Shown piece after piece: positions 15,700-41,729 of a stretch of 64,000 nt of DNA (position 1 is its first letter; each line of letters opens with the position of its first letter). Source of the DNA: an uncultured Candidatus Cloacimonadota bacterium (GTDB lineage Bacteria > Cloacimonadota > Cloacimonadia > Cloacimonadales > TCS61); the NCBI GenBank assembly GCA_964521025.1, contig CAZFPK010000001.1, forward strand, positions 92,845-156,844, given 5' to 3'. The translations under genes were made by a program, and so were the position numbers. The notes beneath the pieces are model-generated. The model searched no databases. It was given only the letters and a program-made list of their open reading frames with translations, and was not told the origin of the DNA.

Positions 15700-16269
15700 C
15701 TACCATTCATTTCCGTTAATATCAAAATCCGAATCACGCCATTCGGAAACCGACATTTTCGCCGGATAGATCATTTTTATACAAGAATCATCTTTATCTT
15801 TTTCATTGTTCTGATTGGTGAAATAAAAAGTGTTATTAACTTCAATCCAACCTAATTTTAGATAAAATCCCGATACTTGAGGTCCACAAAAAAGCAATCC
15901 ATAATCGAATTTCTGACTCTCGATTAAATATTCCTGGGCTTCAAGCATACATAATTTTGCTGCTCCAAAACCTCGATATTCCGGTAAAGAACAGACATTT
16001 CCAATCCCACCGATAAATAAATTTCTCTTGAAATTGGAAATCTCTCGGTTGTGTAACCAAGTAACTGCAATAACTTTTGAATTAATGAGAGTAACAAACC
16101 AGATATCTTTTTCTAATGGTTGTGTATTTGTCCATCTTCGATGTTGAAAAATCTTAACATCCGGAAAGGCTCGAGATAAAACATTTCTTATCTGTTTGTC
16201 GATATCGGGTGGAAGATTTTTTTCTAAATAGTATTTGGTGATGAATGATTTGTTTTTCAGTTTATTCAC
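15700..16269 (-). CDS. GNAT N-acetyltransferase
   Basis: GGIGNVCSLPEYRGFG, FYLKLGW. Confidence 0.85.
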   Translation of the reverse strand: MNKLKNKSFITKYYLEKNLPPDIDKQIRNVLSRAFPDVKIFQHRRWTNTQPLEKDIWFVTLINSKVIAVTWLHNREISNFKRNLFIGGIGNVCSLPEYRGFGAAKLCMLEAQEYLIESQKFDYGLLFCGPQVSGFYLKLGWIEVNNTFYFTNQNNEKDKDDSCIKMIYPAKMSVSEWRDSDFDINGNEW

Positions 16270-17314: not shown

Positions 17315-17327
17315 TCCCTCCTTTTTT

Positions 17328-19529: not shown

Positions 19530-19891
19530 TTTATCTCACTCGAATCCTCTTTTTGAAGCGCAATAACCGCGTTAATGCATAACACCGAAGTCGTTTTCAT
19601 ATCTAAAATAACACGGTTATTTTACTCCATATCGAATTTGTGAAGTCTTTGATACTTACCAAATTTCAATTCATCTTAAAAAATTCAAATCCAGCAGTTG
19701 CCTGATTGGTAAGTTTTTCTCAATCAAGATGATTGAGTTACTTTCTCAACAGGATTGTTTGAGTTACATTTACCCTGAAAATCCTGTTATCCTATCTAAT
19801 CTCTAATGCTTTTTTAAAGTTATTCTCAATTCGACGCTTCAGACTTCACTTCGTTTCGCCTTGACAGGTCGCTTTGAAGTCGAGTCTAACT

Positions 19892-22602: not shown

Positions 22603-22943
22603 AGTTCTATCTCCTTTTATTTTTTATCCACGAATTACACTAATTTCACTAATTTAATTAACAACGAACAAAACGAACATTGAAAAACCTTGAAAAAGTT
22701 TATAAGAATTCACTTCCTGCTTAACTTTTTCAAATGTTTCCTCGCAAATTTGTGAAGTCTATAAAAGACTTACCGAATTTTATCATTTCTTTTAATTCTC
22801 TGATAAACTTCACAAGTTTTGAAAACTTGGTAAGTTTCATTTTCCAACCATTGAAAATGACTTAATCACCTTCGGTGATTTTAGAAAAAATTCCGCTGGT
22901 AGAGTCCGTTTTCAAGGTTTCTCGAAATTGAAATTTCGAGTTA
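22603..22943. repeat. Composite palindromic spacer (modules F-D-B-E-C)
   Basis: CACGAATT module; ACCTTGAAAAAGTT..AACTTTTTTCAA; TTTGTGAAGTCT..AAACTTCACAAG..CTTGGTAAGTTT; AACCATTGAAAA..TTTTCAAGGTT; CTCGAAAT..ATTTCGAGTTA. Confidence 0.85.
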
Positions 22944-26028: not shown

Positions 26029-26409
26029 ATGGGATTAATCAAAACCAAGATTATTTTAAAGAATCCAAAAAAGGAAGAACTGGAAGAGATGGAAGTTGAT
26101 ACACTTGTTCATTCCGGTGCTTTACATTTGTATATTCCTGAAAAAATTGCTATTCAGTTGAATTTAGATGAACTTTATAAACGAGAAGTTGTTACGGCTG
26201 ACGGTAAAGAGCATTTGTGTTCTTATGTAGGACCTATCGAAGTAAAATTCGAGAATAGAGGATGTTTTACCGGTGCTTTAGTTTTGGGAGATGAAGTTTT
26301 GCTGGGAGTAGTTCCAATGGAAGACATGGATGTTCTAATTTCACCTGCCGAACAGAAACTTATTGTAAATCCGGAAAGTCCAAATATTGCTTCTTCCATT
26401 GTTAAATGA
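26029..26409 (+). CDS. Clan AA aspartic-protease-like protein; usual DTG/DSG motif appears as HSG
   Basis: LVHSGA, TADG, YVGP, LLGVVPMEDMD. Confidence 0.75.
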   Translation: MGLIKTKIILKNPKKEELEEMEVDTLVHSGALHLYIPEKIAIQLNLDELYKREVVTADGKEHLCSYVGPIEVKFENRGCFTGALVLGDEVLLGVVPMEDMDVLISPAEQKLIVNPESPNIASSIVK

Positions 26410-26547
26410 GATGAAGAGTGAACCTTGAATAAGTTTATAAGATAATTCATCTCGCTGAACTTTTTCTGTAGTTTCAACTTCTAACTGTTGAAAAGGATTA
26501 ATCTCCTATGGAGATTTTTACACGAATTCCACTGGCAGAATCCGTTC

Positions 26548-28146
26548 TCAAGGTTTTCCCAACTCCAGAGTTTCCGAGGATAGTTTTTCCTGCAGATAAC
26601 GGTCATGAGAAACGAAGATGATTGTTCCATTGAATTTTATGAGAGCATTTTCCAACGCTTCTCTGGCTGATATTTCCAGATGATTCGTCGGTTCATCGAG
26701 AAGCAGCACATTAGCATCGGAAACAATGATCTTTGCCAGAGCAGTTTTGCTTTTTTCTCCGATACTTAAACTTCTAATTTTCTGATATACTTTATCTTTC
26801 CGGATATTCAAGCATCCGAGAATTGTCCTCGCTTCAGAATGAATTTCGTTATTTCCTTGAATGACCTCCTCGATGATGGAATTATTCTCATTCAGATTCT
26901 CAAACTCCTGCGAATAATAACCGATTTTGGCTTGCGGATTCCAGGAAAAAGAACCATCAAAATCGGTAATTTCTCCAATCAGGATTTTCAAAAGAGTCGT
27001 TTTACCGCTACCGTTTACTCCATTTATTACTAATCTTGAATGATTGGGAACAGAAAAGAAGAGACTTTTGAAAACATTATTCGCATCAAACGATTTTCCC
27101 AAATTTTCAACTTTCAGGATAAACCTGCTTTTCAAATCAGAATCGTGAATTTGGATTTTCCTTTTTTTCTCGATGAAAGGTTTGCTCGATTCCTCTTTCT
27201 CGATTTCTTTTCGAATCCTTGTTTCGATGTTCTTTGCTCTTTTCATCGCACTTTTTGCCGGATTCGTGATTTTCTCATAGACCGGAGCATAACCTTCTTT
27301 TCCGGTTTGCGATTGATGGGAAAATGCCCAAGTTTTTCGCTGTGAAAGAGTTTTCTTCAATTGTTTTATCTTTTTCTGCTGCACTTCAAATCTATGCATT
27401 TTCCTGTTGAATTCAGTTGCTTTTTCATACTTGTAAAAGGAATAATTCCCGGAATAAGTTTGAATCGTTTTGTTCTCCAACTCCCAGATTTCTTTCACGC
27501 AGTAATCCAGAAATCTGCGGTCATGGCTGATAACGAGAAACGGAATGGAAATCTTCTGCAGATAGGATTCGAGCCAGTTCAGAGTTTTGATATCGAGATG
27601 ATTTGTCGGTTCATCCAGAAGTAGAATATCTGGTTCATTTAGCATAATTCGACAGAAAGCGATTTTGGTTTTCTCACCTCCACTTAAACTGGAAAGAGGA
27701 CGGGTCAACATTTCCTCTTCGAGTTCAAATTGAGAGAGAGTTTTTTCAAACCTGTATTCAAATTTATATCCGCGATTTTTCTCGAAGTCAGAGTAAATTT
27801 GAACAACTTCCTGTTCGGAAAAATCCTGCAGATTTTTCATCTTCCTTTTTAACTCAAAAAGTATTGGATTAACTTTCCAGAGAAAATCAGAAACAGAAAT
27901 ATTTTCCGAAAGGTCTATCTCCTGGGGAAGAAATCCAGAAACCAGGTCTTTCCTGAAATAAATATTCCCGGAAATTGGCTGAATTTCTTCTTTCAACATT
28001 TTAAGAATCGTAGTTTTCCCGCAGCCGTTATTCCCGATCAAACCGACACGACTGGAATTTACCATCTCGAAAGATACATCTTCCAGGATATTTTCGGATT
28101 GAGTTTCGTAACAGAAACTGATGTTATTTGTTTTGATGTATAGCAT
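26548..28146 (-). CDS. ABC-F ATPase, probable ribosomal protection type
   Basis: Two NBDs (GNNGCGKT, GVNGSGKT; LDEPTNHLD/E), no TM segments, extended interdomain linker ending AKSAMKRAK. Confidence 0.88.
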   Translation of the reverse strand: MLYIKTNNISFCYETQSENILEDVSFEMVNSSRVGLIGNNGCGKTTILKMLKEEIQPISGNIYFRKDLVSGFLPQEIDLSENISVSDFLWKVNPILFELKRKMKNLQDFSEQEVVQIYSDFEKNRGYKFEYRFEKTLSQFELEEEMLTRPLSSLSGGEKTKIAFCRIMLNEPDILLLDEPTNHLDIKTLNWLESYLQKISIPFLVISHDRRFLDYCVKEIWELENKTIQTYSGNYSFYKYEKATEFNRKMHRFEVQQKKIKQLKKTLSQRKTWAFSHQSQTGKEGYAPVYEKITNPAKSAMKRAKNIETRIRKEIEKEESSKPFIEKKRKIQIHDSDLKSRFILKVENLGKSFDANNVFKSLFFSVPNHSRLVINGVNGSGKTTLLKILIGEITDFDGSFSWNPQAKIGYYSQEFENLNENNSIIEEVIQGNNEIHSEARTILGCLNIRKDKVYQKIRSLSIGEKSKTALAKIIVSDANVLLLDEPTNHLEISAREALENALIKFNGTIIFVSHDRYLQEKLSSETLELGKP

Positions 28147-28554
28147 TTAATTTCTTTTTTTTGAACGACAAATTATTAGCAACGAACACACTGAAACTTG
28201 AGTTAAGTTCGGCTTTAGCCGAATCTTGACTTAAGTTGACAATGTTTTATTTGTGAAGTCTGCAAAGACTAACCAAAAGTTTTTATCCCTCTTTTACAAA
28301 CTTCACAAGTTTCAAAAACTTGGTAAGTTTCAGTTCTAACCGTTGAAAAGGACTTAATCTCCTGTGTAGATTAAAAAAAGAATTCCGCCAATAGAATATT
28401 TTTTAAGATTACTGCTTTCCAAACTCTGAAAGAGTCGAATGAAAGAAAATTTGAAAGAGACTTTTTCAGAGTTATTATCTCGAAATCGGAATTTCGAATT
28501 ACTGTATCACAATCATTCTTAATTGTATTTTTTTAAACAGGGATTTTTGAGTTA
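28147..28554. repeat. Composite palindromic spacer (F-A-B-E-H-C-G)
   Basis: A 28194-28240, B 28249-28330, E 28338-28410, H 28422-28474, C 28479-28502, G to 28554. Confidence 0.88.
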
Positions 28555-29286
28555 CAATTGATGCATCATCCAGACATTCGGTTCGAAGTAAATCCCCTCT
28601 ATATCATCAAAGACCACTAGACTCAACGCACCGGGAATTATGTATTTTCCTGATTCAGGAAATTTCATTCCTGTCCAACTTTCCCAATCCGCATGAGAGC
28701 CTGATATTTTCATTGCTTGGGAACATACTTTAATTATTTTTCCACCAAGTGTTTCGTGAACTCGCAGCCAGGGATCGAAAAGTTTCCCATCTTCTCTTTT
28801 CCATGAAATATATTTTTGCATATCAATGAGCGGATAATCTTTTTTCAATGTCGGACGAACAGGAACCAGAAGTTTTTCAAAATTTTTCTTCTTCCCTATT
28901 TCCATCATTGCTTTTATCATTTCCGTGCTGATCCCTTTTCCTTGATATTTTGGACTGATCGTGATCGACATCGCACAAAGAAAGTTCGGTTTTATCTTAT
29001 TTTCTTTATCTTTGAATCCTTTTTGCAATGCCCAATCCCAGCCATTTTCAGGAAGATTTTCAAGTTTATTATTCCAGAAAATCGGGATCGAGTTTCCGCT
29101 TCCAACCATTTCATTTCCTTCCATAAGCCAGTATTGATATTCCGGGAAATCATCATAAAGTCTGATAAAATATTCATCTGCGACAGCATCGTTCAGCATA
29201 AATTCAGGCCAGACTTCGATGACTAATTCATCGCCTTTTTCGATCAAGTCTTCTTGTTCGAGAGTTGTTACTACTTTGTATTTCAT
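28552..29286 (-). CDS. GNAT family acetyltransferase
   Basis: ISPKYQGKGIS, PVRPT, DPWLRVH. Confidence 0.85.
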   Translation of the reverse strand: MKYKVVTTLEQEDLIEKGDELVIEVWPEFMLNDAVADEYFIRLYDDFPEYQYWLMEGNEMVGSGNSIPIFWNNKLENLPENGWDWALQKGFKDKENKIKPNFLCAMSITISPKYQGKGISTEMIKAMMEIGKKKNFEKLLVPVRPTLKKDYPLIDMQKYISWKREDGKLFDPWLRVHETLGGKIIKVCSQAMKISGSHADWESWTGMKFPESGKYIIPGALSLVVFDDIEGIYFEPNVWMMHQL

Positions 29287-29558
29287 TTTATTTCCTTCCT
29301 ATCACGGCGTAGTTCTGAACAAAGCCGGATTTTTTTGAATCACTAATTATAACGAATTTTCACGAATATAAACTTTGAAAAAGTCTCTCTCATTCATTCA
29401 TCCTGATTGTGCATCTCTCAAACAGGAATGCTTGAGTTACATCCTGTTAATTCAGCCTGATTTTTTCTCCTTGCTCTCTGTATTCTCTGTGATTAACATT
29501 TGAAAAGTAGTTAATCTCCTGTGTAGATTAAAAAGAATTCCGCTGACAGAATCCGTTT

Positions 29559-30356
29559 TCAAGGTTTCTTCGCAACTAAAATATAACTCAATGGCAATTT
29601 CAAATCTGATTTCTGTAAATATTCATAAATCACTCCGTAATCTCTCTCATATTCATTGAATAACTTCAATTGAAATCCACTAGAAATAATTCCATTAATC
29701 AAATCGGAAACCGTATGAGAAAATTCGTAAGCCGAAGCAGAATCATATTTGGTTAAGCCGTAATAATCGATTCCATCTTTCCCGACATAAATCTCATTGT
29801 CGAAGTAATTATGTATGATTTTTACTTCTCCGTCGAATTCATTATCATACGGCAGAACATTATTGAAAGGATGGATTTCGTATATGAAGAGAATTCCGTT
29901 TTGTGTAAGAAGTTGCGATGCTTTCCGGAAATATCCATTCAAATCCGGAATCCAGGCTAATGCTCCAACTGTGATGTAAACCAGGTCGAATTTATCGTTA
30001 TATTTTTCCGGAATATCGAACACATCCGTTCTAACGAATTCACAATCGATTTCGAATTTTTTTGCTCTTTTCATCGCATCTTTTATTGCTTCATCAGAAA
30101 TATCGAAACCGACACATTTTGCTGCTCCCATTCTTTTGAGAGACATTAGTTCGACGCCGTTATTGCAGGATAAATGTGCGATATTCTTCCCTTTGATCCC
30201 AATTTTATTTAGTTCCTCCAATTCTTCATTTTTCTGAAAGATGAAATCCGGATTGGAAAACATCTTATCCCACTTATTATCCATCACTTTGCGATGTTTG
30301 GGCATTGCCTGATTCCAGGCTTTTCGATTTGCTTCGGTGTATTTTTTGGTTTCCAT
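29559..30356 (-). CDS. Class I SAM-dependent methyltransferase
   Basis: HLSCNNG, GFDIS, FDLVY..GALAWIPDL, YEIHP. Confidence 0.88.
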   Translation of the reverse strand: METKKYTEANRKAWNQAMPKHRKVMDNKWDKMFSNPDFIFQKNEELEELNKIGIKGKNIAHLSCNNGVELMSLKRMGAAKCVGFDISDEAIKDAMKRAKKFEIDCEFVRTDVFDIPEKYNDKFDLVYITVGALAWIPDLNGYFRKASQLLTQNGILFIYEIHPFNNVLPYDNEFDGEVKIIHNYFDNEIYVGKDGIDYYGLTKYDSASAYEFSHTVSDLINGIISSGFQLKLFNEYERDYGVIYEYLQKSDLKLPLSYILVAKKP

Positions 30357-30804
30357 TACTTATCCTTTTTTTCAACGAACAAAACAACCGACTAACAATC
30401 AGAATCTTGATTTTGGAGTGCATCAATTATTTTGCTGCAAAACGACGGAGTCGTTTCCCCACAGAATGCAATTCTGTGCTTCTCTGACCTTGAAAAAGTT
30501 TTTTAGTATTCACAACAAAAATCTTTGAAGGAGATTACAGAACTTTTTCAACGGTTTCTATCTAAATTTGTGAAGTCTTTGAGACTTACCAAATTTTGAA
30601 GATATAAAACTTCACAAGTTTCGGAAACTTGGTAAGTTTTCTCGAAATCGGAATTTCGAGTTACATTCCAAACCTTGAAAAAGTTTATAAGTATTCTCTT
30701 CCTGCCATACTTTTTCAATGGTTTTCCCATATCATCGATTTCCAACCATTGAAAAGGACAAATGAAAGAATTCCTCCGGTAGAATCCGTCTTCAAGGTTT
30801 TTAA
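30357..30804. repeat. Composite palindromic spacer (F-D-B-C-D-E)
   Basis: D 30488-30557, B 30565-30640, C 30641-30664, D 30672-30725, E 30744-30800. Confidence 0.85.
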
Positions 30805-32859
30805 CTAAAAAGTATAACTCACCTTCATATAAGCCTGTTCGTAGTCGGTGATAAACTCCTGATCAATTTCATCTTGAGCAGTTTTATAACCGAGATAGAA
30901 ATTGCAGTTATCCTTGAATTCAAAACGAAGATTGGAGAAAAAACCGAGATTAGCAGAATAATTTTCCATCTCATAATTGTTATATCGCAAACCATTAGTG
31001 AGAGAGAGTCGATTGGAAAAATTGATGATCAAATCGGCATTTCCGATCCAATATTCATCATCCTTTCCGCAATCGATCGGGAAATCAAAATGCTTAAGTT
31101 TTTGCCCGGAAATATTATATGAAATATGATTGCTGACATCTCCAAAAAAAGTTATGTGAAATTTATCTCTTCTAAATATTTCGGAAAGATCATAAACGAG
31201 AGAATTTCCTGTGATGTAAGTGAGCCAGGCACCAAACCAGGAAATCTTCCAGGTTTTGATACTTGCGTAAAAATTATTCCAGGTGTAAACAGAACCGTTG
31301 TAATTTTCCTGACCAATACTCCCATTCAAACTGAAATTAATTTTATGAGGAGAATTCATCCAGAAATTCAATCCTCCATTTTGTTCGAGCAGTTCTTTAT
31401 TTTCATTTTCAAATGCTTTATGAAGCCAGATACTCGAACCAAACTTCTTTATGATCTTTCCATTCGGATCACTGTTTTGCCAAAAATTTGCATTTAGAGA
31501 TGTGAAATCGGTTTCAAAAACCCGACCCATGTCCGCATTATAATTTTTGCTCATTCGCGCTCCGTTCAACGACCAGTTTAGATCACTCTTTTTTCCATTA
31601 TATCCGAGATGGACAGAATATCCTTTTTCATATTTAATTTCCGGATCATTTTTCAAAGTGAAATCTATCTCACTCCAAATCGAGTGGTTTTTCACAAATT
31701 CCCATCTTGGATTGATCATTAGAACTTCGTTGTGATAATCTTTGTTCATCCTGTTCAAGAGCGTCATTTGAATAGAAAGATCTTCCCATTTCGGTTTGAA
31801 AGCCAACAGGTTATAAAGATCATTATCGTTCAGGATATTATTATCATCCGAAACTTTTTTATCCATTGCGGAAAGAAATCCATAAGAAAAATTTTCAGTA
31901 TTTCCCGTCAATTTGACAGCATAACGAGGTTGCATAATATGACGGGAATAAAACAAATTGCTCTCTACTCCGAAAACATCGAGATCTTCGATAAAGAAAT
32001 AACGATTTTCCTCGAAATGCGGAGGATAGCGAATATTGAAATTATCTTCCACTTCATCCAGCGGAATATCGGAAAAATCGGGATTCAGACTGATCTTTGC
32101 TTTTGTGGAAGAAGTAGGATTATAAGAAAAATCCAATCCAATATTTTCCGGATCGAAAGAATCTGTCTTTTCAATCAAATCATATTTTTTGATGAAATAT
32201 GGAGTGATCCTGTAATTCTTGTTTTTGGATAATTCCTCATTTATAGTGACATCATAAGCAGTCCGAAAATAATCTTTTCCCATTTTATTTGTGCCGAAAG
32301 GAACTGAAAAATATTCGTCGGATTCCTTCAAATACCGGGTTAAAATTATTTTCCAATTATAAGGAGGATCACCGTAAAATCGTAAATCTTTCAAAGGAAT
32401 TTTCATCATACTTTTCCATAACTTTTCGGAAATAATATTTTCCCTCTTGTAATTGCTGTTCCAACTTGTATCCATATTCATGTCGGATTGGCGAATGCCG
32501 TCATAATGATTTCCGAGCGGAAAAACGCAAAACATATAAGCATAATAATTTTTGATGTCCGTGATGACCTGGATCCTGATAAAATCGCAATCGACCCATT
32601 CATCCTTGTTTGCTAATTTTCCTTGTGCAAAACTTTTATCGATTTCCGCTTCGCAACGAACAAATAGATTTTCTTTATCGTGCCAAAGCCAAACATCTGT
32701 CCGCAACGGAATTGACTGCCCATCATCGGGAGAAATCCGCACAAACTCCGAAAGATGATTCGATTCTGTTTTCAATTCTGTCTGCGAATACGGGATCGTG
32801 ATCGCTGTTAGAATTACTGCTGTGAATATTAAAATTAATGTTACAATTTTCTTTTTCAT
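30805..32859 (-). CDS. DUF5916/CBM9-like outer-membrane protein
   Basis: Signal peptide; LNPDFSDIPLD..ENRYFF; C-terminal YMKVSYTF barrel signal. Confidence 0.8.
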   Translation of the reverse strand: MKKKIVTLILIFTAVILTAITIPYSQTELKTESNHLSEFVRISPDDGQSIPLRTDVWLWHDKENLFVRCEAEIDKSFAQGKLANKDEWVDCDFIRIQVITDIKNYYAYMFCVFPLGNHYDGIRQSDMNMDTSWNSNYKRENIISEKLWKSMMKIPLKDLRFYGDPPYNWKIILTRYLKESDEYFSVPFGTNKMGKDYFRTAYDVTINEELSKNKNYRITPYFIKKYDLIEKTDSFDPENIGLDFSYNPTSSTKAKISLNPDFSDIPLDEVEDNFNIRYPPHFEENRYFFIEDLDVFGVESNLFYSRHIMQPRYAVKLTGNTENFSYGFLSAMDKKVSDDNNILNDNDLYNLLAFKPKWEDLSIQMTLLNRMNKDYHNEVLMINPRWEFVKNHSIWSEIDFTLKNDPEIKYEKGYSVHLGYNGKKSDLNWSLNGARMSKNYNADMGRVFETDFTSLNANFWQNSDPNGKIIKKFGSSIWLHKAFENENKELLEQNGGLNFWMNSPHKINFSLNGSIGQENYNGSVYTWNNFYASIKTWKISWFGAWLTYITGNSLVYDLSEIFRRDKFHITFFGDVSNHISYNISGQKLKHFDFPIDCGKDDEYWIGNADLIINFSNRLSLTNGLRYNNYEMENYSANLGFFSNLRFEFKDNCNFYLGYKTAQDEIDQEFITDYEQAYMKVSYTF

Positions 32860-33170
32860 ATTTTATTTTTTCCTTTTTTTTGAAATCATGAATTAACACA
32901 AATTTTCACGAATCTAAAACTTAAGTTAAGCCGGCTTTAGCAGGTCTTGACTTAAGTTGACATATTCCGCTCCCATTAATTCTCAATATATTTGTGAAGT
33001 CTCCGAGAACTTAACAAATTTTGTTTCGATCCTTGCAAAACTTCACAAGTTTTTGGAAACTTGGTAAGTTTTCTCAAAATCGGAATTTCGAGTTACTGTA
33101 TCACAATCAATCCTGATTGTGTTTTTCTCAAACAAGATTGTTTGAGTTACATTTATCCTGTTCATCCTTT
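32860..33170. repeat. Composite palindromic spacer (F-A-B-C-G)
   Basis: A 32917-32961, B 32991-33071, C 33073-33096, G 33092-33150. Confidence 0.88.
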
Positions 33171-33464
33171 TTAATCATTCACCCAATATTCCCGGCAATC
33201 TTGAGTTCTTCTCATAAATCCATAATCGACGAGTAATCTTCTAATTATGAAGATATCATCATAAAAACCGGAGACAATTTCATTCACCTCTTTTTCTGAA
33301 TATTTCCTATTCGATTCGAAATTCTCGAAAATTTTCTGTAAAACTATCACCTTTTTCTTCTCTTTATTTGGAAGTGTTTTCAATCTTCCCGAATCTTTAT
33401 CGAAATATGATTTCAACACTTTCTCTTTTGTTTTTTCATCTATCTCATATTTGTCTTTGATCAT
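33171..33464 (-). CDS. DUF2087 domain protein
   Basis: GRLKTLPNKEKKK, YSEKEVNE, IRRLLVDYGFMRR..EYW. Confidence 0.85.
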   Translation of the reverse strand: MIKDKYEIDEKTKEKVLKSYFDKDSGRLKTLPNKEKKKVIVLQKIFENFESNRKYSEKEVNEIVSGFYDDIFIIRRLLVDYGFMRRTQDCREYWVND

Positions 33465-33663
33465 TTTGTTCTCCTTTTTTTGAAACCATTAATTAACACA
33501 AATTCTCACGAATAAAACTTGAGTTAAGTCGGCTTTAGCCGATCTTGACTTAAGTTGAAGATAATCATTACTTCGTCTATCCAACCATTGCGAAGGTCAA
33601 GAGAAGCAAGAAGTCCGAAAACCATTCGCAAGGTCTTTCTCGAAATCTGAATTTCGATTTACA

Positions 33664-35352
33664 TTATATCGCAGGTCCATAAAATGATTCCCATAATTTC
33701 TTTGAAACATTGTATGAATCTTTCTCCACCCCGAATTTGCTTACATATTTGCAGATATTTTCAACATCCCGCAAAAGCAGTTCAAAGGCGTTATGATTTA
33801 CATTCGGATCTACTGCTTGAGGAAAATCGATAATATACGGCTCTTCCTTGTGATAGAGAATATTAAAAGGTGAAAGATCACCGTGCACAATATGATTTTG
33901 GAGCATCACGGAAATATTGTTCACGATTTTTTTAAAGACATTTTCCGCTTCTTGCTTATTTAAACGAACATCTTTGAGCATCGGAGCAGAATAATCATCT
34001 TCTCCGATAAAACTCATCACAACAGCATCATCCGTGCAGGCAATCGGTTCCGGCACTTTCAATCCGATGTCAAATAATGTTCCCAAAGCATCAAATTCGT
34101 TGTTCACCCAAATAGAGCGTTCCACTTGTTTCACGATTGAAGAACCTTTCTTTTTACCTCGTTCCAAGCGTTTATCCCAAATCCTGCCTTGATGGTAAAT
34201 TCCATCCTGCTTAAAATTCCGGAATTTCTTTTCCCGATACAATTTTACTGCCATATATTCACAATTCATTTCATGATGCGCCTTACAGCAGACAACAACC
34301 GCTTCTTTACCTTTTTTTACCACTCGAATTAGTTCTGTGATTATTTTTTCATCAAAGAAATCCTCGCAGGATTCTCCGTAACGCATCAAATCTGTTTTGA
34401 AAACATTTTCCACAGGCTGCAATTCATAGAATATTTTTTCCAACAAAGATATTCTTTCTTTATCGATTTCCGGAACTTGTTCAGCGTTAAATTGCTGACC
34501 AATCTCACCCATAAAATCTACACAGCAAACTGCTGTATAAAAATCCAGAACCTGAAGTTGCAGATTGGACAGGTTATATTCATCTGAAATAAAATCGATA
34601 TAATCCGTATCACTATTTTGAGAAAGTAGAGCCATTTTCGTGAGACCTAAATGAAACAATTTATCACCGAAACAGAGTTCATCTACATCTACAATTCCAT
34701 TCAACTTTCCGTTTTGGATGATTACATTTTTGGTAGTGATATCATCGAGAAAAGGAACCGACTCGATCGATGAAAAATATTCATCAAAGCGCTCCATCCT
34801 GGTGAAAAGAAACTCCACCTGTTTCAAACTGCAAACTCCGATGTCAGCGATGCGATCTCTACTTCTTTTCAGCGAATTCCTGATCACATCTTTCCACGAT
34901 TTATTTTCCTTTAGAATTTTATCTTCATAAGAAGTTGCATAACCGTAACCTTCCGCTTTGGGAAGATCTGAAACTATTTTTTGAATTTTCACGATTTCTT
35001 TCGATAGATTTTTCTTTTGCGTCCCGGTCAGTTCATCATAAACAAAATGCAGGTCTTTTCCTGCTAATCGTTCCATAATCACATACGGAAATTCGCATTC
35101 AAAATCGAAATGAAGAATTTCAGGAACAGGAGTTTTAAAATGCTTCATTTTTTTATTCCAATAAACTCCACCTTTTAATAAATTTATGGAGTTATCTCTT
35201 GCGAGACGAATTACAATTTCCTCACCGGTTTCCAATTTTACATCATAAACAAAATGACATAATCCTGCATTAAACCTGCTGATTTCAGAAACAGCAACTT
35301 GATAATGATTTTCTACAATATCTTTTGCGATTTGAATATTTGGATTTTTCAT
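33664..35352 (-). CDS. Aminoglycoside-phosphotransferase-like domain fused to RIO1-type kinase
   Basis: N-half DDITTKNV..GIVDVD; C-half KKGKEAVV, AVKLY, HGDLSPFNIL, IIDFPQAV; start placed at ATG 35352 after the RBS. Confidence 0.8.
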   Translation of the reverse strand: MKNPNIQIAKDIVENHYQVAVSEISRFNAGLCHFVYDVKLETGEEIVIRLARDNSINLLKGGVYWNKKMKHFKTPVPEILHFDFECEFPYVIMERLAGKDLHFVYDELTGTQKKNLSKEIVKIQKIVSDLPKAEGYGYATSYEDKILKENKSWKDVIRNSLKRSRDRIADIGVCSLKQVEFLFTRMERFDEYFSSIESVPFLDDITTKNVIIQNGKLNGIVDVDELCFGDKLFHLGLTKMALLSQNSDTDYIDFISDEYNLSNLQLQVLDFYTAVCCVDFMGEIGQQFNAEQVPEIDKERISLLEKIFYELQPVENVFKTDLMRYGESCEDFFDEKIITELIRVVKKGKEAVVVCCKAHHEMNCEYMAVKLYREKKFRNFKQDGIYHQGRIWDKRLERGKKKGSSIVKQVERSIWVNNEFDALGTLFDIGLKVPEPIACTDDAVVMSFIGEDDYSAPMLKDVRLNKQEAENVFKKIVNNISVMLQNHIVHGDLSPFNILYHKEEPYIIDFPQAVDPNVNHNAFELLLRDVENICKYVSKFGVEKDSYNVSKKLWESFYGPAI

Positions 35353-35576
35353 TGTTTTTTCCTTTTTTTTGAAACTACGAATTTTCACGAATCTAAAACT
35401 TGAGTTAAGTCGGCTTTAGCCGATCTTGACTTAAGTTGACATATTAGCACCTTGAAAAAGTTTCTTTCAATCCATCTTCCTATTTAACTCTTTCAAGGTT
35501 ACACATCTCCAAACTCTGAAATAGTCAAATATAAGAGAATTTGGAAGAGACTTTTTCAGAGTAATATTCAAGGTTT
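35353..35576. repeat. Composite palindromic spacer (F-A-D-H); D-H part nearly colinear with 25171-25283
   Basis: A 35396-35440, D 35449-35500, H 35512-35563. Confidence 0.85.
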
Positions 35577-37403
35577 CTATGCATTCAATATCTTCGCTTC
35601 CTGTTCTTCCATAAACTGGTTCGTGTAGAGTTTATGGTAATATCCTTTCTGGTTGAGAAGTTCGTGATGATTTCCCTGCTCGGTAATTTTTCCATCGCGG
35701 ATCACTAAAATCCTGTCTGACGAACGGATTGTGGAAAGACGGTGGGCGATGATAAAACTCGTACGATTCTCCAGAACTGTTTGGATAGCATCCTGGATTT
35801 TCTGTTCGGTTTCCGTATCCACAGACGAAGTTGCTTCATCCAGCACAAAGATTTTTGGATTCGCTAGAATCGCTCTGGCAAAGGAAATGAGTTGCTTTTC
35901 TCCGGTTGAGAGCAGACTTCCACCTTCACCGACTTCGCTGTCATATCCTTTCTCGGTTTTCTGGATAAAATCGTGTGCATTGACCAATCGAGCCGCATTT
36001 TCAACTTCCTCGTCATTTGCATCCAATCTGCCGTATTTGATGTTGTCCTTGATCGTACCGCTGAACAGATGTGGTGTCTGCAATACATAACCGAGATTGG
36101 AATGCAACCAGAGCAATGACCTTTCCCGATAATCGGTTCCGTCGATTTTGATAGAACCGGAATTCGGTTCATAAAATCGGCAGGCAAGATTTACGATTGT
36201 GCTTTTGCCGGAACCTGTTTCTCCAACGAGTGCTATTGTTTCTCCGGAATTTATTTCCAGGTTGAAATTCTCCAGCACATTTTCACCTTTTTTGTATTTG
36301 AAAGAAACATTCTCAAAGTGGATATTCCCTATTATTTTTGGCCAATTCTCTGTTTTCGAGTTAAGGATATCACCGAATTTTTCCGCAATTTCCGAACTGT
36401 CCTGAATCTCCGGTTTCTCATCGATCATCGAGAAAATCCTCTCTGCTGATGCTTGAGCATTTTGCAATTCCGCAAAGATGCGAGCCAGTTCCCGCAAAGG
36501 TTCAAAAAACTGAACTGTGTAAGATATGAAAGCGACAAGAGTTCCGTAAGTTATGGTTTGCAGGATAACGCCTTCTCCGCCTTTCCATAGTGCGAGTCCG
36601 GTTCCGATGCTGCCGAGAGTCAGAACTGCCGGCAGATACAAGGATGAGAAAATCGCTGCTTTTACGGATGAACGATACATTTTGCTCGTAAGTTGCTGGA
36701 ATTCTTTCAGATTCGCTTCTTCCCGAACTAATGTTTTGGTTGTCTTTGCTCCGGAGATTCCTTCATTGAACGACCCAGTAATGCGCGAATTCGTCTTCCG
36801 AACTTTCCGATAAGTTTTCAGTATTTTCTTCTGGAAATAAATGCTGATCACAACCAAAACCGGAACAACGATCAAAACCATCAACGCCAGTTTCCAATTC
36901 ATAATCAACATCACGATACTGATCCCGATCATCAGCGAAAATCCCCAAACCAGATCGACCAAACCCCAGGCGATGGTTTCTCCCAAACGCTGTCCGTCGG
37001 AAGTCATTCTTGCCATCAGCCAGCCGACCGGAGTTTTATCATAGTAATTGAAGGAAAGTTCCTGCAGATGCTGGAATCCTGCTTTCCTGATGTCGTAGGT
37101 CAATCCCATCTCAACTCTTCCTGCCAAAGCAATGAAGAAATAGATATTTATCGATTGAATGACGATCAATCCGAAATAGATCAGACCAAATCTCACAAGT
37201 CCGTCAGTACTTGCCGGAACAACAAAATGATCGATCGCATACTTACTCATCAGCGGGAAAATGACATCTACTCCAGCCAATCCCAGCATAAAAACTGCGA
37301 TGATGATCATTTGTTTTTTATAGGAAATTGTGAATTGAAAGAGTTTTTTCCACAACTTCCAATCTAAATTTTTATTATATTCCTGTTCTTCAAAAATAGA
37401 CAT
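35577..37403 (-). CDS. ABC exporter TMD-NBD half (consensus subunit of a heterodimer)
   Basis: TM helices; GETGSGKS, LSTGEKQ, LDEATS, AHRLST. Confidence 0.92.
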   Translation of the reverse strand: MSIFEEQEYNKNLDWKLWKKLFQFTISYKKQMIIIAVFMLGLAGVDVIFPLMSKYAIDHFVVPASTDGLVRFGLIYFGLIVIQSINIYFFIALAGRVEMGLTYDIRKAGFQHLQELSFNYYDKTPVGWLMARMTSDGQRLGETIAWGLVDLVWGFSLMIGISIVMLIMNWKLALMVLIVVPVLVVISIYFQKKILKTYRKVRKTNSRITGSFNEGISGAKTTKTLVREEANLKEFQQLTSKMYRSSVKAAIFSSLYLPAVLTLGSIGTGLALWKGGEGVILQTITYGTLVAFISYTVQFFEPLRELARIFAELQNAQASAERIFSMIDEKPEIQDSSEIAEKFGDILNSKTENWPKIIGNIHFENVSFKYKKGENVLENFNLEINSGETIALVGETGSGKSTIVNLACRFYEPNSGSIKIDGTDYRERSLLWLHSNLGYVLQTPHLFSGTIKDNIKYGRLDANDEEVENAARLVNAHDFIQKTEKGYDSEVGEGGSLLSTGEKQLISFARAILANPKIFVLDEATSSVDTETEQKIQDAIQTVLENRTSFIIAHRLSTIRSSDRILVIRDGKITEQGNHHELLNQKGYYHKLYTNQFMEEQEAKILNA

Positions 37404-37449
37404 AATTTACCTCTTAATTAGCAACGAACAAAACTAACAAAACGAACAA

Positions 37450-38145
37450 TTATTTACCACCGAGAACACCGAGATACACCGAGTTTAAATCTCCTCTTGA
37501 GAGGAGTCCGACTTTAGTCGGGAGGTGTGTTTCTTCATCATTGGATATTCCTTGTTGGATATTGAATATTTTTCTCTCCCAATCCCTTCTCAAGAGTGAA
37601 TAAATCAATTGATCATATCTAATTTTCCCATTCTCAAACCAATAATGTGCTCTCATTCTGCCATCGATTTGAAAACCAAAATGATCGAGTAGTTTTATCG
37701 AGCCGATATTTCCCTCATTTGTTTCAGCATAAATCTTATTCAAACTCATTTTCTTATAATTGAACATTGTATCCAAAAATAATGAAAGTAGTATCTTTCC
37801 ATAACCCTTTCTACGATTTTCTTTTGGGAAGTAATAACTGATCTCGATGCTATAATTTCGATGATTTCGATTTTGATAACTGGCGAAACCTAAATATTCT
37901 CCTGTTTTATTTTCTTTCAGAAAAGCGTAATTTATTTCTGAATACAATCGATTCTGCATTCTTTGATAGAATTTCTCAAAATGTTCTTCTTTGAAATCTT
38001 CTGTGTGCTTTTCCGGAACCCAGGCACAACTCATTTTATCTTTTTCATCTTCACTGATCTGCCATTTGTAATACTGCTTCAGAAGTTTTCTATCTTCTTT
38101 ATTTACAAATATTAGTGAATAAGATTTCTTTATGTCTTTTGTCAT
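37450..38145 (-). CDS. RimJ/RimL-type GNAT acetyltransferase with repeat-derived C-terminal tail
   Basis: RRKGYG, NIGSIKLL..FGFQIDGRMR; last ~40 aa run through repeat DNA. Confidence 0.82.
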   Translation of the reverse strand: MTKDIKKSYSLIFVNKEDRKLLKQYYKWQISEDEKDKMSCAWVPEKHTEDFKEEHFEKFYQRMQNRLYSEINYAFLKENKTGEYLGFASYQNRNHRNYSIEISYYFPKENRRKGYGKILLSLFLDTMFNYKKMSLNKIYAETNEGNIGSIKLLDHFGFQIDGRMRAHYWFENGKIRYDQLIYSLLRRDWERKIFNIQQGISNDEETHLPTKVGLLSRGDLNSVYLGVLGGK

Positions 38146-38219
38146 TTGTTCTCCATTTCTTTTCTTCCTTTTTCCTTCATTATTGGAAATTCCTTGTTGG
38201 ATATTGGATATTCATCTTT

Positions 38220-40085
38220 TCAAACAATCTTCTTCTCCTTCTTCAACACATCCGCTTCCATCTGCTTTGGCTCGATCTCGAATTCCAGTTCTTCCTCCAA
38301 CTGATTCTGCAGATTCCAGATACGCTGATAAAGTCCAGTTTGATTAACAAGTTCCTGATGATTTCCCTGCTGGATAAGTTTACCGTTTTCCAGAACCAGA
38401 ATCAAATCTGCTTCTGCGAGTGTATTGATGCGATGCGAGATGATGAAAGTCGTTGCCTTATTATTTCGCTTTTTGAGTTCTTTCCTGATCGCAGCATCTG
38501 TTTCCGTATCGACAGCACTCAATGAATCATCAAAAATCAGAATCGGACTGTCATTTACCAGAGTTCGAGCAATGGCGATTCGCTGCTTTTGTCCGCCGGA
38601 AAGAGTTACACCCCGCTCTCCAACTGCAGTTTCATATCCATTCTCAAAATCTTCGATAACTTCATGCACGGAGGCAATACGAGCGGCTTCAAAGACTTCC
38701 GCTTCGATCACATCGTGCTTTGCCAATCCGATATTTTCTTGAATCGTTTTGGAGAATAGGAAGGGCTCCTGAAGAACAATTCCCACTTTTTTCCTGATCA
38801 CTTTCTTATCGATATTTCTCAATTCAATTCCATCGATCTTGATCGAACCTTTTTGATTCTCATACAATCTCGGTAAAAGATGAACGAGAGACGATTTTCC
38901 AGATCCTGTCGGACCGAGAACAGCAACTGTCTGTCCTTTTTTGATATGAAAAGAAACATCATCCAGAACCGGTTTTCCTTCATCGTATTCGAAAGATACA
39001 TTTTGGAATTCGATCTCGCCTTCGATGGTTGGAGTCGGATCGCTGTCATTTCCAAATTCTTCGATCGGTGCATCGAGTATTTCCTGAATCCTGCCAATCG
39101 AAACAAGCGCTTTTCCCATATCGGTCAGAACTCGTCCCATTTGACGAATCGGCCAGAGCAACATTCCTACATAAGAAGTGAAAGCGAGTAAAGTTCCCAA
39201 CGAGATGATTCCTTTAGCAGCCCAGAAAGTTCCGATAACCAGAACTCCACCGATCTGGATCAAACAGAAAAAATCGGAAACCGACCAATACCAGGCGAGA
39301 AGCCGGATGAGATTGTAAGTAAGGTTGCGATACTCTACATTTCGCTCATCGAATTTCCCGATTTCATAAGACTGTCTGGCAAATGCTCGCACCACGCGCA
39401 CTCCGGTTAGATTTTCCTGTAGAACCGTTGATAATCTTCCTTCCGACTCATCCGAAAGTTTGAATGCTTTCTTTACTTTGATGAAGAAAACCACCGTGAA
39501 ACAGAAAATGAGAGGAATGAGCGACAACGAAACCAGCGTCATTTTCACATTCATCGGCAACATAAAGGAAAGTGCAAAAGCTATCATAAAGAGTGCTCTT
39601 CCAACCTCCACAAACTGCATTGCCAGAAATCTGCGAATCGTTTCCACATCGGAAGTACAGCGCTGGATCAAATCTCCGGTTTTCGCTTTCTGATGATAAT
39701 CATACGGAAGTTTCTGGAGATGATCGTAAACTTTCTCCCTGATCTTCCTGGCAATAGATTCCGCAGAAACAGCCGACCACTTTCCTTTCCAATACAGGAA
39801 AACTCCTCTGATCAATGTTAATCCAATGAGGAGTAAACTGCAGATCCAGAGGTTTTTTGCCAGTAGACTCTGATTTCCAAAAAAATTTAGCAAACCTTCG
39901 ATATACAGCTGCAACCAACCGAAAACAGCCATCTCTTTCCCACCGATGATCGAATCAACAGTGATCCTTAAAATCATTGGCCAAATGAAGTTAATGAAAG
40001 TAGCAAAACCAATGGAAAGGATGGACAGCACATAAAGCGTTCTGTTTCCTTTCATAAAATTCCATAATATTTTTATTTTATCCAT
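38220..40085 (-). CDS. ABC exporter TMD-NBD half (degenerate-site subunit of a heterodimer)
   Basis: GPTGSGKS, LSGGQKQR, Walker B FDDSLSAVD with Asp in place of the catalytic Glu. Confidence 0.92.
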   Translation of the reverse strand: MDKIKILWNFMKGNRTLYVLSILSIGFATFINFIWPMILRITVDSIIGGKEMAVFGWLQLYIEGLLNFFGNQSLLAKNLWICSLLLIGLTLIRGVFLYWKGKWSAVSAESIARKIREKVYDHLQKLPYDYHQKAKTGDLIQRCTSDVETIRRFLAMQFVEVGRALFMIAFALSFMLPMNVKMTLVSLSLIPLIFCFTVVFFIKVKKAFKLSDESEGRLSTVLQENLTGVRVVRAFARQSYEIGKFDERNVEYRNLTYNLIRLLAWYWSVSDFFCLIQIGGVLVIGTFWAAKGIISLGTLLAFTSYVGMLLWPIRQMGRVLTDMGKALVSIGRIQEILDAPIEEFGNDSDPTPTIEGEIEFQNVSFEYDEGKPVLDDVSFHIKKGQTVAVLGPTGSGKSSLVHLLPRLYENQKGSIKIDGIELRNIDKKVIRKKVGIVLQEPFLFSKTIQENIGLAKHDVIEAEVFEAARIASVHEVIEDFENGYETAVGERGVTLSGGQKQRIAIARTLVNDSPILIFDDSLSAVDTETDAAIRKELKKRNNKATTFIISHRINTLAEADLILVLENGKLIQQGNHQELVNQTGLYQRIWNLQNQLEEELEFEIEPKQMEADVLKKEKKIV

Positions 40086-40301
40086 TATTAATTTCCTTTA
40101 ACCGCGAATGAACACAAATTTTCGCGAATTCACCTTGAAAAAGTTTATAAGTCTTTTCTTCTTGCTGAACTTTTTCAACGGTTTTCATTTGAATTTGTGA
40201 AGTCTCCAAAGACTTAACAAATTTTATAAAGCTATTAGTCTAAAAAACTTCACATCCGTCAGTTGCCGGATTGTTAGTTTTCTCAAAATCGGAATTTCGA
40301 G

Positions 40302-40445
40302 TTACTTTCGTTTCAATTCCTCTTTCAAGAATTTCCGTACAGTCTTTCTTCCCTTCTGCTTAAACCAGCGTTTCGATTTTGTATGAGCACCATCCGGATG
40401 CGCCGGTCTTTTCCGGTTATATAATTTTTGAATTCCTGTTTTCAT
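40302..40445 (-). CDS. 47-aa highly basic small protein, not in ORF track
   Basis: MKTGIQKLYNRKRPAHPDGAHTKSKRWFKQKGRKTVRKFLKEELKRK; bracketed by the same spacer modules as neighbouring genes. Confidence 0.6.
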   Translation of the reverse strand: MKTGIQKLYNRKRPAHPDGAHTKSKRWFKQKGRKTVRKFLKEELKRK

Positions 40446-40608
40446 AATTTATTTCCCACAATTTAGCTCCGAACAAAACCAACAAAACGAACAATCTAAA
40501 ACTTGAGTTAAGTCGGCTTTGTTCGAATCTTGACTTAAGTTGAACTCTTTACCCTCGAAATCGGAATTTCGAGTTACATTCCAGTCCCATCATATGATTT
40601 TCCAAAAT

Positions 40609-40648
40609 AAAAAAAGACTCGTGAGAGCCAGAGCCCACTCGAGTCTTT
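40609..40648 (-). terminator. Attenuator terminator T2
   Basis: Minus strand AAAGACTCGAGTGGGCTCTGGCTCTCACGAGTCTTTTTTT. Confidence 0.8.
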
Positions 40649-40670
40649 GAAAAAATTTTGCTTTAGATAC

Positions 40671-40711
40671 AAAAATAGTGGGATTAGCCCTGGTATCGAC
40701 CAATCCCACTA
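40671..40711 (-). terminator. Attenuator terminator T1
   Basis: Minus strand TAGTGGGATTGGTC-GATACCAG-GGCTAATCCCACTA-TTTTT. Confidence 0.8.
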
Positions 40712-40777
40712 AAATATATTTATCTCATTTTATTGAGCGTTTTTCCTGATATTTTAATAAATTACGGGATCGGTCAA

Positions 40778-40822
40778 CTAAATGACAGAACCGCCTGCAG
40801 GTAATCTTAATAATCTATTCAT
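40778..40822 (-). CDS. Leader peptide MNRLLRLPAGGSVI
   Basis: AAGGAGG RBS 6 nt upstream of ATG; stop overlaps a 13-nt sequence complementary to T1. Confidence 0.72.
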   Translation of the reverse strand: MNRLLRLPAGGSVI

Positions 40823-41108
40823 CCAAATCCTCCTTCGTTTATTTTGCATTTTGCAATGAAAGATTACTACTCTATTTTTTAAGGAATATATACTGTCAAG
40901 AATTTTTACTTAATTTTTCGAAAATATTTCTAATTCTTTAGTTGTAATTTGTTTAAAAATAGACAATTATCCAGATGAAATTTTATTTTATGAAATGAAA
41001 CAAAAAGATTTCTTCTAATAATAATGAATGAAATGGATAAAATTATTTCTCTTTACAATAAAATTGTATCTTTAAGTTTTGCAGAGAATTTTTTTCGGAG
41101 GATAGTAG

Positions 41109-41729
41109 ATGAAAAAAATCGATTTTAAAAAAGAGTTAAAAGAACTTTATAATCCATCTGCAAAAAAGGTTGTTGTCATAGATGTTCCGATTTTGAATTT
41201 CCTGATGATCGATGGACAGGGAAACCCGAATACTGCGAAAGAATACCAGGATGCTCTGGAAACACTTTACGGAGTTACCTTCACGATCAAAATGCTGCCC
41301 AAAAAAGGAGAAACTCCGGAAGGATATTTCGAATATGTTGTTCCACCTTTGGAAGGTCTCTGGTGGTCGGATGAAAAGAATAACCTTGATCTGGAAGATA
41401 AAAATAATTGGAAATGGACAGCCATGATCATGCAGCCGGAATTTGTAACGCAGGAATTGGTTGAATTTGCAATCCAACTTCTCCAAAAGAAAAAGGATAT
41501 TCCTGCTTTATCGAAAATGCGATTTGAAAGTTATAATGAAGGTTTATCCGCCCAGATAATGCATATTGGACCTTATGCGGAAGAAGCTACGACTATTGAT
41601 ATGATTTATCATTTCATCAAAGAAAAGGGATACAAATTTAATGGAAAACATCACGAGATCTATTTGAGCGATCCGCGACGAAGTGCTCCGGAAAAATTGA
41701 AAACAGTTATCAGACAACCGATCAAGTAA
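41109..41729 (+). CDS. GyrI-like small-molecule binding protein
   Basis: PPLEGLWW, MHIGPY, HHEIYLSDPRR..KLKTVIRQP. Confidence 0.88.
   Translation: MKKIDFKKELKELYNPSAKKVVVIDVPILNFLMIDGQGNPNTAKEYQDALETLYGVTFTIKMLPKKGETPEGYFEYVVPPLEGLWWSDEKNNLDLEDKNNWKWTAMIMQPEFVTQELVEFAIQLLQKKKDIPALSKMRFESYNEGLSAQIMHIGPYAEEATTIDMIYHFIKEKGYKFNGKHHEIYLSDPRRSAPEKLKTVIRQPIK

Follow-up and report, generated by a model that had tools for sequence, protein, structure and literature searches.

The window analysed here, a 64,000-nucleotide (nt) stretch of the genome of an uncultured Candidatus Cloacimonadota bacterium (G000:C1:92845-156844; genome G000, 3.5 Mb, 92% complete, 111 contigs), carries on its minus strand, from position 40822 down to 26548, a 14-aa leader open reading frame (ORF) followed by ten co-oriented genes of the ORF listing. 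We read this locus as the local form of an arrangement found in one bacterial family: a conserved attenuator leading an ABC exporter, continued by a variable array of co-oriented genes for the response to translation inhibitors. We give this reading a probability of about one half. The island would join efflux to the protection or rescue of ribosomes and, possibly, to modification of drugs or their targets.

The leader region begins with a promoter-like -35 box, TTGACA, at 40894..40899 (minus strand, as all features below unless marked otherwise), with an A-rich tract ahead of it; a convincing -10 element could not be made out there. The leader ORF (MNRLLRLPAGGSVI, 14 aa, 40778..40822) has a strong Shine-Dalgarno sequence, GAAGGAGG. 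About 3-5 nt past its stop codon begins a 10-nt antiterminator segment (40766..40775), read from the sequence, which is complementary to the 5' arm of terminator T1 (40676..40711), a hairpin with a 14-bp stem and a UUUUU run, a free energy of -23 kcal/mol and a z-score of -5.85. A second terminator, T2 (40613..40648; stem and U7; -17.1 kcal/mol, z -4.44), is present in all five leader sequences inspected. The region combines the upstream ORF (uORF), the intrinsic terminator and the mutually exclusive antiterminator of a leader-peptide transcription attenuator. Rfam at gathering thresholds gave no match in the window.

The T1 pattern was searched in 201 genomes sampled from the order, with the reversed pattern as a control. 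It occurs once per genome in 22 of them, all from the family to which the window belongs (G000 and 21 of the other 61 genomes), while the reversed pattern gave no match. In each of the 22, a predicted uORF of 13-15 aa, led by a Shine-Dalgarno sequence, lies 50-100 nt upstream of T1, and an A-rich tract with a CTTGAC box stands some 70 nt ahead of the leader's ATG. The motif RxPxG is found in 20 of the 22 leader peptides and its PxG part in 21. The antiterminator lay outside the search pattern; across the 22 sequences, 95.4% of cells pair between it and the T1 arm, compared with 18-59% for slid controls. The orthologue of the first exporter gene, ABC1, comes first past the leader in 20 of the 22 genomes and second, after the gene of a small basic protein (p47), in two. 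Altogether, the attenuator is conserved and tied to ABC1 and its partner ABC2 rather than to the distal genes, and the leader switch proposed in an earlier, sequence-only reading of this DNA is borne out.

Some points weigh against a stronger claim. Covariation in the antiterminator is weak: only two of ten pairs change on both sides, and 64 of 500 shuffles score at least as high for covariation. The leader sequences are closely related, and T1 itself served as the search pattern. The antiterminator signal is one of conserved complementarity, and strong covariation is lacking.

The position of the antiterminator relative to the stop and the P-x-G codons suggests how the switch would work. The promoter, the short leader ORF, T1 with its antiterminator, and T2 would together control the ABC1/ABC2 exporter. 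Under unimpeded translation, a ribosome at the leader stop would cover the antiterminator, T1 would form and transcription would end. The RxPxG codons lie 3-4 codons ahead of the stop; a ribosome arrested there would leave the antiterminator unmasked and able to pair with the 5' arm of T1, letting RNA polymerase continue. We infer both the stalling site and the inducers.

The two exporter halves, ABC1 (38220..40085, 621 aa, a transmembrane domain, TMD, with a nucleotide-binding domain, NBD) and ABC2 (35577..37403, 608 aa), each match ABC_membrane and ABC_tran. By the usual definitions of the Walker B and signature motifs, ABC1 has a degenerate Walker B (..FDD) and a canonical signature (LSGGQ), and ABC2 a canonical Walker B (..LDE) and a deviant signature (LSTGE). 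Since these deviations are complementary, the two halves are predicted to form a heterodimeric exporter whose ATP sites differ, one being degenerate and the other consensus. The BmrCD-like pair announced by the sequence-only reading is confirmed by this asymmetry, which is of the BmrCD/TM287-288 type. The best bacterial relatives of solved structure are TM288, TmrA/TmrB and BmrD; neither half reaches a specific NCBIfam equivalog cut-off (MsbA, 410-444 against 602). Drug export and resistance are the presumed functions of the locus.

In every relative examined the genes of ABC1 and ABC2 are neighbours; G000 alone has another gene, GNAT1 (37450..38145, 231 aa), between them. It is flanked by a 53-nt direct repeat (37530-37582 and 38172-38224, 83% identity, repeat family D18). 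This repeat, around the sole gene seen between the two halves, suggests a repeat-mediated insertion. The last ~40 codons of GNAT1, with the spacer that follows, recur on contigs C34, C76 and C22.

Eleven arrays, each extending at least about 3 kb beyond ABC2, were compared (G000, G013, G015, G117, G137, G061, G089, G011, G097, G077 and G113). ABC1-ABC2 opens each of them, and the genes that come after, on the same strand throughout, vary in kind and order. The gene for p47 is present in ten (it is absent from G061), as are GNAT-domain genes; methyltransferases occur in five, an orthologue of the window's ABC-F in four, HflX in four and the APH-RIO kinase in two. Seven of the 11 arrays end at a barrel protein of the CBM9/DUF5916 kind, past which the genes vary among genomes, a nitroreductase, an M29 peptidase or TldD/PmbA among them. 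The same flank is seen in the window at 15700-24986 (minus strand), with a GNAT_9-like gene, a nitroreductase, a 196-aa protein of no assigned family, a CBM9 barrel, a TldD/PmbA pair and an M29 peptidase. With shared ends and differing content, the region from ABC2 to the flank is a hotspot of variable content. The comparison recovered in relatives the same leader and the same kind of array, including a second HflX. One further gene of 203 aa, absent from the window, is found in three of the 11 arrays and in the partial array of G095; its product has no Pfam family, and it lies directly after ABC2 in four relatives (L034 10901-11512, L042 4761-5372, L143 4371-4982 and L148 4275-4886).

What the array is for has to be weighed against a rival account, in which the functional unit is the leader with ABC1 and ABC2 only, and the rest is a recombination hotspot of unrelated genes with no common regulation or stress role. 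Content and order do differ in every genome, a direct repeat surrounds GNAT1, and the modifying enzymes are generic. However, ABC-F, a second HflX, GNATs, methyltransferases, kinases and p47 recur across genera in a non-random manner, and these families match classes of the WblC/WhiB7 regulon as reported (PMC7157823). Moreover, in G061 and G015 the ORFs are tightly packed or overlapping: in the former, the run of ABC1, ABC2, HflX and a GNAT fusion has one gap of 12 nt, after which the ORF calls overlap, and the gaps of the latter are 14, 304, 21, 129, 15, about 0 and 11 nt. We find a hotspot of unrelated genes rather unlikely as the whole explanation. The array fits a translation-inhibitor response island, because its accessory ABC-F, second HflX and mixture of exporter, GNATs and methyltransferases mirror the WblC/WhiB7 regulon. 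The functional idea of the sequence-only reading is thus a reasonable one, to which the comparison of genomes adds weight.

The ABC-F protein (26548..28146, 532 aa), last of the ten, matches ABC_tran twice and ABC_tran_Xtn; its two NBDs are joined by a linker, without a TMD. Orthologues occur in 8 of the 62 family genomes (7 of 32 high-quality ones; 6 of 22 genera), and none was found in a genome of the same genus, which is fragmented. Against proteins of solved structure, the bit scores are 292 for VmlR2, 263 for Sal(B), 242 for VmlR and 237 for YbiT. The linker aligns without a large gap to VmlR, VmlR2 and Sal(B); its tip is about 13 residues longer than that of YbiT, the sole housekeeping protein compared, and is conserved among the five orthologues aligned. 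The protein appears to be an accessory ABC-F similar to those of antibiotic resistance (ARE), with a role in resistance suggested by likeness.

Several scores speak against going further. The protein falls below the cut-offs of the named ARE subfamilies (Sal, 353 against 725; Vga, 307 against 725; Lsa, 304 against 750; Msr, 270 against 680; OptrA, 259 against 1450). It passes the generic NF000355 (464, cut-off 380), a model that is not ARE-specific, since housekeeping ABC-Fs pass it as well, in 8 of 14 control genomes and in the case of the other ABC-F of G000, a 660-aa paralogue. Finally, the margin over YbiT is small. The ARE ABC-F of the sequence-only reading stands in its accessory character, its closeness to VmlR2, Sal(B) and VmlR and its long linker, but no named ARE subfamily cut-off is reached. 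We found nothing relevant in the published literature on ABC-F proteins of Cloacimonadota. An 84-aa ORF downstream of the ABC-F gene (26223-26477) has paralogues on contigs C5 and C14 and no Pfam family.

The HflX of the arrays is a second copy in all four genomes checked, beside a higher-scoring copy elsewhere. There is no HflX in the window, and the single HflX of G000 lies on another contig.

The protein p47 (40302..40445, 47 aa) is encoded between the attenuator and ABC1. Its differences from four orthologues peak at third codon positions (9/7/24, 13/6/21, 8/9/21 and 11/8/24), so the ORF is a real gene. It is single-copy in G000 and its product is 66-75% identical to orthologues in five other genomes of four genera. 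Lysine/arginine-rich, p47 is conserved over its whole length, strongly so in its core, with no division into leader and core peptides. The family is small (22 representative clusters at 50% identity); of nine homologues, the single named one is from Cloacimonadota. No match was found in Pfam or NCBIfam, a profile search against Protein Data Bank (PDB) sequences gave nothing meaningful (best E 0.066), and the ESM Atlas returned unnamed clusters only. The position of the gene changes: behind the attenuator in G000 and G013, directly after ABC2 in G089, G011 and G113, directly after the ABC-F gene with almost no gap in G015 and G117, and after HflX in G137. From its charge and its neighbours, our guess is that p47 may be ribosome-associated.

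Between ABC2 and the ABC-F gene lie five others. The first encodes a double kinase with APH-like and RIO1-like halves (33664..35352). Its likely start is the ATG at 35352, with AAGGA before it, giving 562 aa; the listed ORF extends to 35388 (574 aa), its GTG lying inside a repeat module, M2/D1. Both halves keep the usual catalytic-loop motifs of kinases. The APH half has many stand-alone homologues and belongs to a large family of ~315-aa kinases, while the APH-RIO1 fusion is rare (about 16 full-length clusters among 120 listed). Named homologues of the kinase, of p47 and of the 684-aa protein described below are all from Candidatus Cloacimonadota. The other genes encode a DUF2087 protein of 97 aa (33171..33464), not found in the arrays of the relatives examined; the 684-aa protein; a class I S-adenosylmethionine (SAM) methyltransferase of 265 aa (29559..30356); and GNAT2 (28552..29286, 244 aa), with orthologues of 67-71% identity in four other arrays. 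In one relative (G089, L141 3860-5362, minus strand), the orthologues of GNAT2 and of the methyltransferase are joined in one 500-aa frame, in the order GNAT2-methyltransferase; in the window the order is methyltransferase-GNAT2, as separate genes with a 272-nt spacer between them.

On several counts these enzymes speak against the island. The kinase passes the generic Pfam APH model (41.1 against 23.2) but is far below the APH resistance cut-offs (APH(3'), 38.9 against 205). The similarity of GNAT1, GNAT2 and the methyltransferase to any solved protein is weak, at 29-35 bits. The drug modification that the sequence-only reading had drawn from the GNAT and APH families was not supported: neither the GNATs nor the methyltransferase nor the APH half could be matched to a known resistance family.

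The 684-aa protein (30805..32859) likewise counts against the island. It matches nothing in Pfam or NCBIfam itself; its homologues carry DUF5916 and its paralogues CBM9. These paralogues lie on contig C51 and in the window at 17925-19529, the latter being the CBM9 barrel of the flank, 26% identical. An AlphaFold2 model (pLDDT 84.5, pTM 0.82) comprises a signal helix, a beta-sandwich and a large beta-barrel, and resembles large outer-membrane barrels with TM-scores of 0.3-0.4. This outer-membrane-type barrel of the DUF5916/CBM9-like family belongs with the conserved flank instead of with resistance. Neither it nor the DUF2087 and GyrI-like genes are resistance markers. Pfam and NCBIfam confirm all stated families other than the 47-aa and 684-aa proteins, and the description of ten co-oriented minus-strand genes behind the leader is upheld.

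The joint presence of a kinase, a methyltransferase, acetyltransferases and an ABC exporter, and a faint class III lanthionine-synthetase match confined to the core of the kinase (E 1.3e-4), raise the idea of a cluster that makes and exports a modified peptide or natural product, with p47 or the leader as precursor and the kinase, methyltransferase and GNATs as tailoring enzymes. Pfam and NCBIfam found no cyclase, peptidase-domain exporter or other core biosynthetic enzyme; p47 is conserved throughout, without the leader/core split of a precursor, and the genes are not conserved together. With the core enzymes not found, we rejected this idea, to which we give next to no credence.

How far the switch reaches is a separate question, on which the spacers bear. 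From p47 to the ABC-F gene the gaps are 216, 74, 46, 188, 199, 311, 448, 272 and 405 nt: seven of the nine measure 188-448 nt, and the two short ones (74 and 46) flank GNAT1. Short hairpin modules, combined as in a mosaic, make up the large gaps. Such modules fill the spacer before the ABC-F gene (28147..28551) and those at 29287-29558, 30357-30804, 32860-33170, 33465-33663, 35353-35576 and 40086-40301. A blastn search with the spacers gave 400 matches: 72 fall within the locus, and the other 328 are spread over more than 60 contigs. Genome-wide copy numbers, with those of the locus in brackets, are 32 (2) for ModA, 19 (5) for M2, 18 (2) for ModB and 7 (6) for M1.

Five genes, those for p47, the kinase, DUF2087, the barrel and ABC-F, have the M2 hairpin (-15 kcal/mol) 44-58 nt ahead of their start codons. 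We considered M2 as a regulon-specific 5' element and rejected it: ten genes behind other copies are functionally unrelated. As elsewhere it precedes genes of unrelated function, M2 is a generic repeat. Both this and the genome-wide spread of the spacer modules are what a mere hotspot of unrelated genes would predict.

The modules recall the REP/BIME-type intergenic mosaic repeats of enterobacteria, which are likewise short hairpin modules in varying order between co-oriented genes, genome-wide. In contrast to these, the sequences are unrelated, M1 and M2 are concentrated in the locus (6 of 7 and 5 of 19 copies), and M2 stands directly upstream of starts. Nothing relevant was found in the published literature on intergenic palindromic repeats of Cloacimonadota. 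Several modules match other genera at 90-98% identity over ~50 nt, where the neighbouring coding DNA is ~70% identical. Two spacers, at 40132-40200 and 30680-30730, carry in-frame sequences similar to the N-terminus encoded by the 84-aa ORF (KT[VI]EKV.QEE..YKLFQG), which resemble gene-start fragments within repeats. ORFs similar to Y1 (IS200/RAYT-type) transposases occur in the window at 53789-54163 (plus strand) and on contigs C31, C29, C28 and C8 of G000; six matches in the genome are above the Pfam cut-off for Y1 transposase, one of them in the window.

Hairpins between co-oriented genes also bring integrons to mind: the locus could be a cassette array, an attC cluster without its integrase, with the intergenic hairpins as attC sites. 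The hairpins are imperfect, a composite module of ~75 nt follows three stop codons, and G000 encodes a genuine integron integrase (TIGR02249, 439 bits, cut-off 265) at the edge of contig C68. The attC boxes have the consensus RYYYAAC/GTTRRRY, which the modules, judged by eye, do not match beyond AAC/GTT. Furthermore, the modules are spread over more than 60 contigs, often singly; M2 lies directly upstream of start codons, in gene orientation; the 158-kb contig of the locus has no integrase; and the leader with ABC1-ABC2 is vertically conserved. The dispersal of the modules, the placement of M2 and the missing integrase make the integron reading very improbable. The integrase gene itself (G000:C68:118-1161) is at the very edge of a 16-kb contig without repeats or cassettes, so the lack of module matches on this contig is uninformative; any cassette array of C68 would be off the contig.

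In its fullest form, the one operon under one switch of the sequence-only reading means that p47 to ABC-F are one 14-kb transcript, wholly dependent on read-through at the leader, in which the repeats are elements of RNA stability or processing. In favour of it, the A-rich tract with a CTTGAC box is seen at the leader promoter only: no second one was found between the genes on the coding strand. Missing -35 boxes prove little, however, since the promoters of this phylum are uncharacterised, and a consensus promoter scan was at chance, with 52 sites against 51.5 in shuffles. The internal hairpins are mostly weak or lack a U tract: the one that follows the barrel (-7.4 kcal/mol) and the one within the spacer between GNAT2 and ABC-F (-1.4 kcal/mol) do not outdo shuffled sequence, and a hairpin pair after ABC-F has no U tract. 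Given this weakness, transcription may read through the whole array. No uORF led by a Shine-Dalgarno sequence was found upstream of ABC-F in G000, and relatives have compact arrays behind the same leader.

On the other side stand the gaps of 188-448 nt, which in G000 depart from the short gaps or overlaps of a single operon, and a hairpin just past the methyltransferase stop codon (29535..29554; -10.5 kcal/mol, z -3.81, U5), upstream of GNAT2 and ABC-F, which is a credible candidate terminator. Co-orientation alone is no evidence for an operon, since it runs on into the housekeeping-like genes of the flank. In addition, ABC-F orthologues lie apart from the exporter in some genomes (at L040, and in G008 on another contig). 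We regard the single 14-kb transcript as unlikely.

The one-operon claim is not supported for G000: compact arrays in relatives make co-transcription behind the leader plausible across the family, but the long gaps and the terminator after the methyltransferase make it doubtful for GNAT2 and ABC-F in G000. The check for internal signals is likewise divided, with no second leader-type -35 box but one credible terminator. In G000, only the leader, p47, ABC1, GNAT1 and ABC2 are convincingly under the switch; the genes beyond ABC2 would at best be reached by read-through across long, repeat-filled spacers.

Upstream of the leader, the divergent GyrI-like gene of the sequence-only reading was recovered at 41109..41729 (plus strand, 206 aa). 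It is a neighbour not conserved with the locus, and relatives hold a TPR protein or an adenosine deaminase there. The gene adjoining it (41805-45356, plus strand) encodes 1183 aa with an adenylate/guanylate cyclase domain, AAA_16 and TPR repeats, a signalling protein of STAND-like type whose cyclase domain also matches Pycsar cyclase models. PADLOC gave only generic ATPase, kinase and methyltransferase matches, and no anti-phage system among the ten genes.

The closest known counterpart of the attenuator and exporter is bmrB-bmrCD of Bacillus subtilis, where ribosome-mediated transcription attenuation is reported to control a heterodimeric multidrug ABC exporter (PMC4191407). Both loci have a small leader ORF, alternative stem-loops and an intrinsic terminator before two adjacent ABC half-transporter genes, and the exporter pair has one degenerate ATP site; translation inhibitors would be the expected inducers here. 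Contrary to bmrB-bmrCD, the leader here has 13-15 aa with RxPxG, the terminator is downstream of the ORF and not inside it, a second terminator follows, p47 and GNAT1 are inside the unit, a variable array comes after it, and the host is from a diderm phylum of the FCB group.

A similar leader, of 14 aa, is reported to govern the attenuation of hflXr in Listeria monocytogenes, described there as an additional HflX copy too (PMC6310831); four relatives here have a second HflX behind a ~14-aa leader-peptide attenuator. The differences are that the window has no HflX, that the leader motif is RxPxG and not RLR, and that the gene lies within an exporter array. The WblC/WhiB7 regulon is reported to comprise ABC proteins, HflX, 16 GNATs and seven methyltransferases, and to be induced through uORF attenuation (PMC7157823). 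A translation-stress sensor based on uORF attenuation is linked in both cases to the same classes, including ABC exporters and ABC ATPases; there, however, the sensor controls a transcription factor with a dispersed regulon, whereas here the genes of the candidate effectors follow the sensor on the same DNA, no transcription factor takes part, and any regulatory link beyond the exporter is putative. By this analogy, the locus would resemble a cis-linked counterpart of the WhiB7/WblC resistome.

The ABC-F, for its part, shares with VmlR, VmlR2 and Sal(B) (PDB 6ha8, 8buu and 7p48) two ABC domains without a membrane domain and an extended linker. It differs from them in that identity is low, no named ARE cut-off is reached and no dedicated leader ORF lies upstream in G000.

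A bolder version of these analogies would make the locus a transcription-factor-free counterpart of the WhiB7 resistome: an RxPxG arrest-peptide switch opening one long, hairpin-punctuated transcript, p47 a new ribosome-binding protein of stress relief, and the APH-RIO kinase docking on the small ribosomal subunit through its RIO half. We hold this to be improbable as a whole. The parts are of known kinds; the novelty lies in how they are arranged in this phylum, in the leader motif, in p47 and in the APH-RIO fusion.

Leader-peptide attenuators responsive to translation inhibitors are known chiefly from Firmicutes and Actinobacteria, and most of them serve one gene or regulator. Here, the exporter of an uncultured anaerobic phylum stands behind a conserved attenuator whose peptide motif is distinct, and the same chromosomal slot gathers accessory genes of ribosome protection or rescue, modifying enzymes and an undescribed small basic protein. 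Dispersed hairpin repeats can both inflate and reshuffle such an operon-like array. If the array is co-induced, it would be a compact natural multi-mechanism intrinsic resistome, and would offer the RxPxG arrest peptide, p47 and the APH-RIO kinase as candidates.

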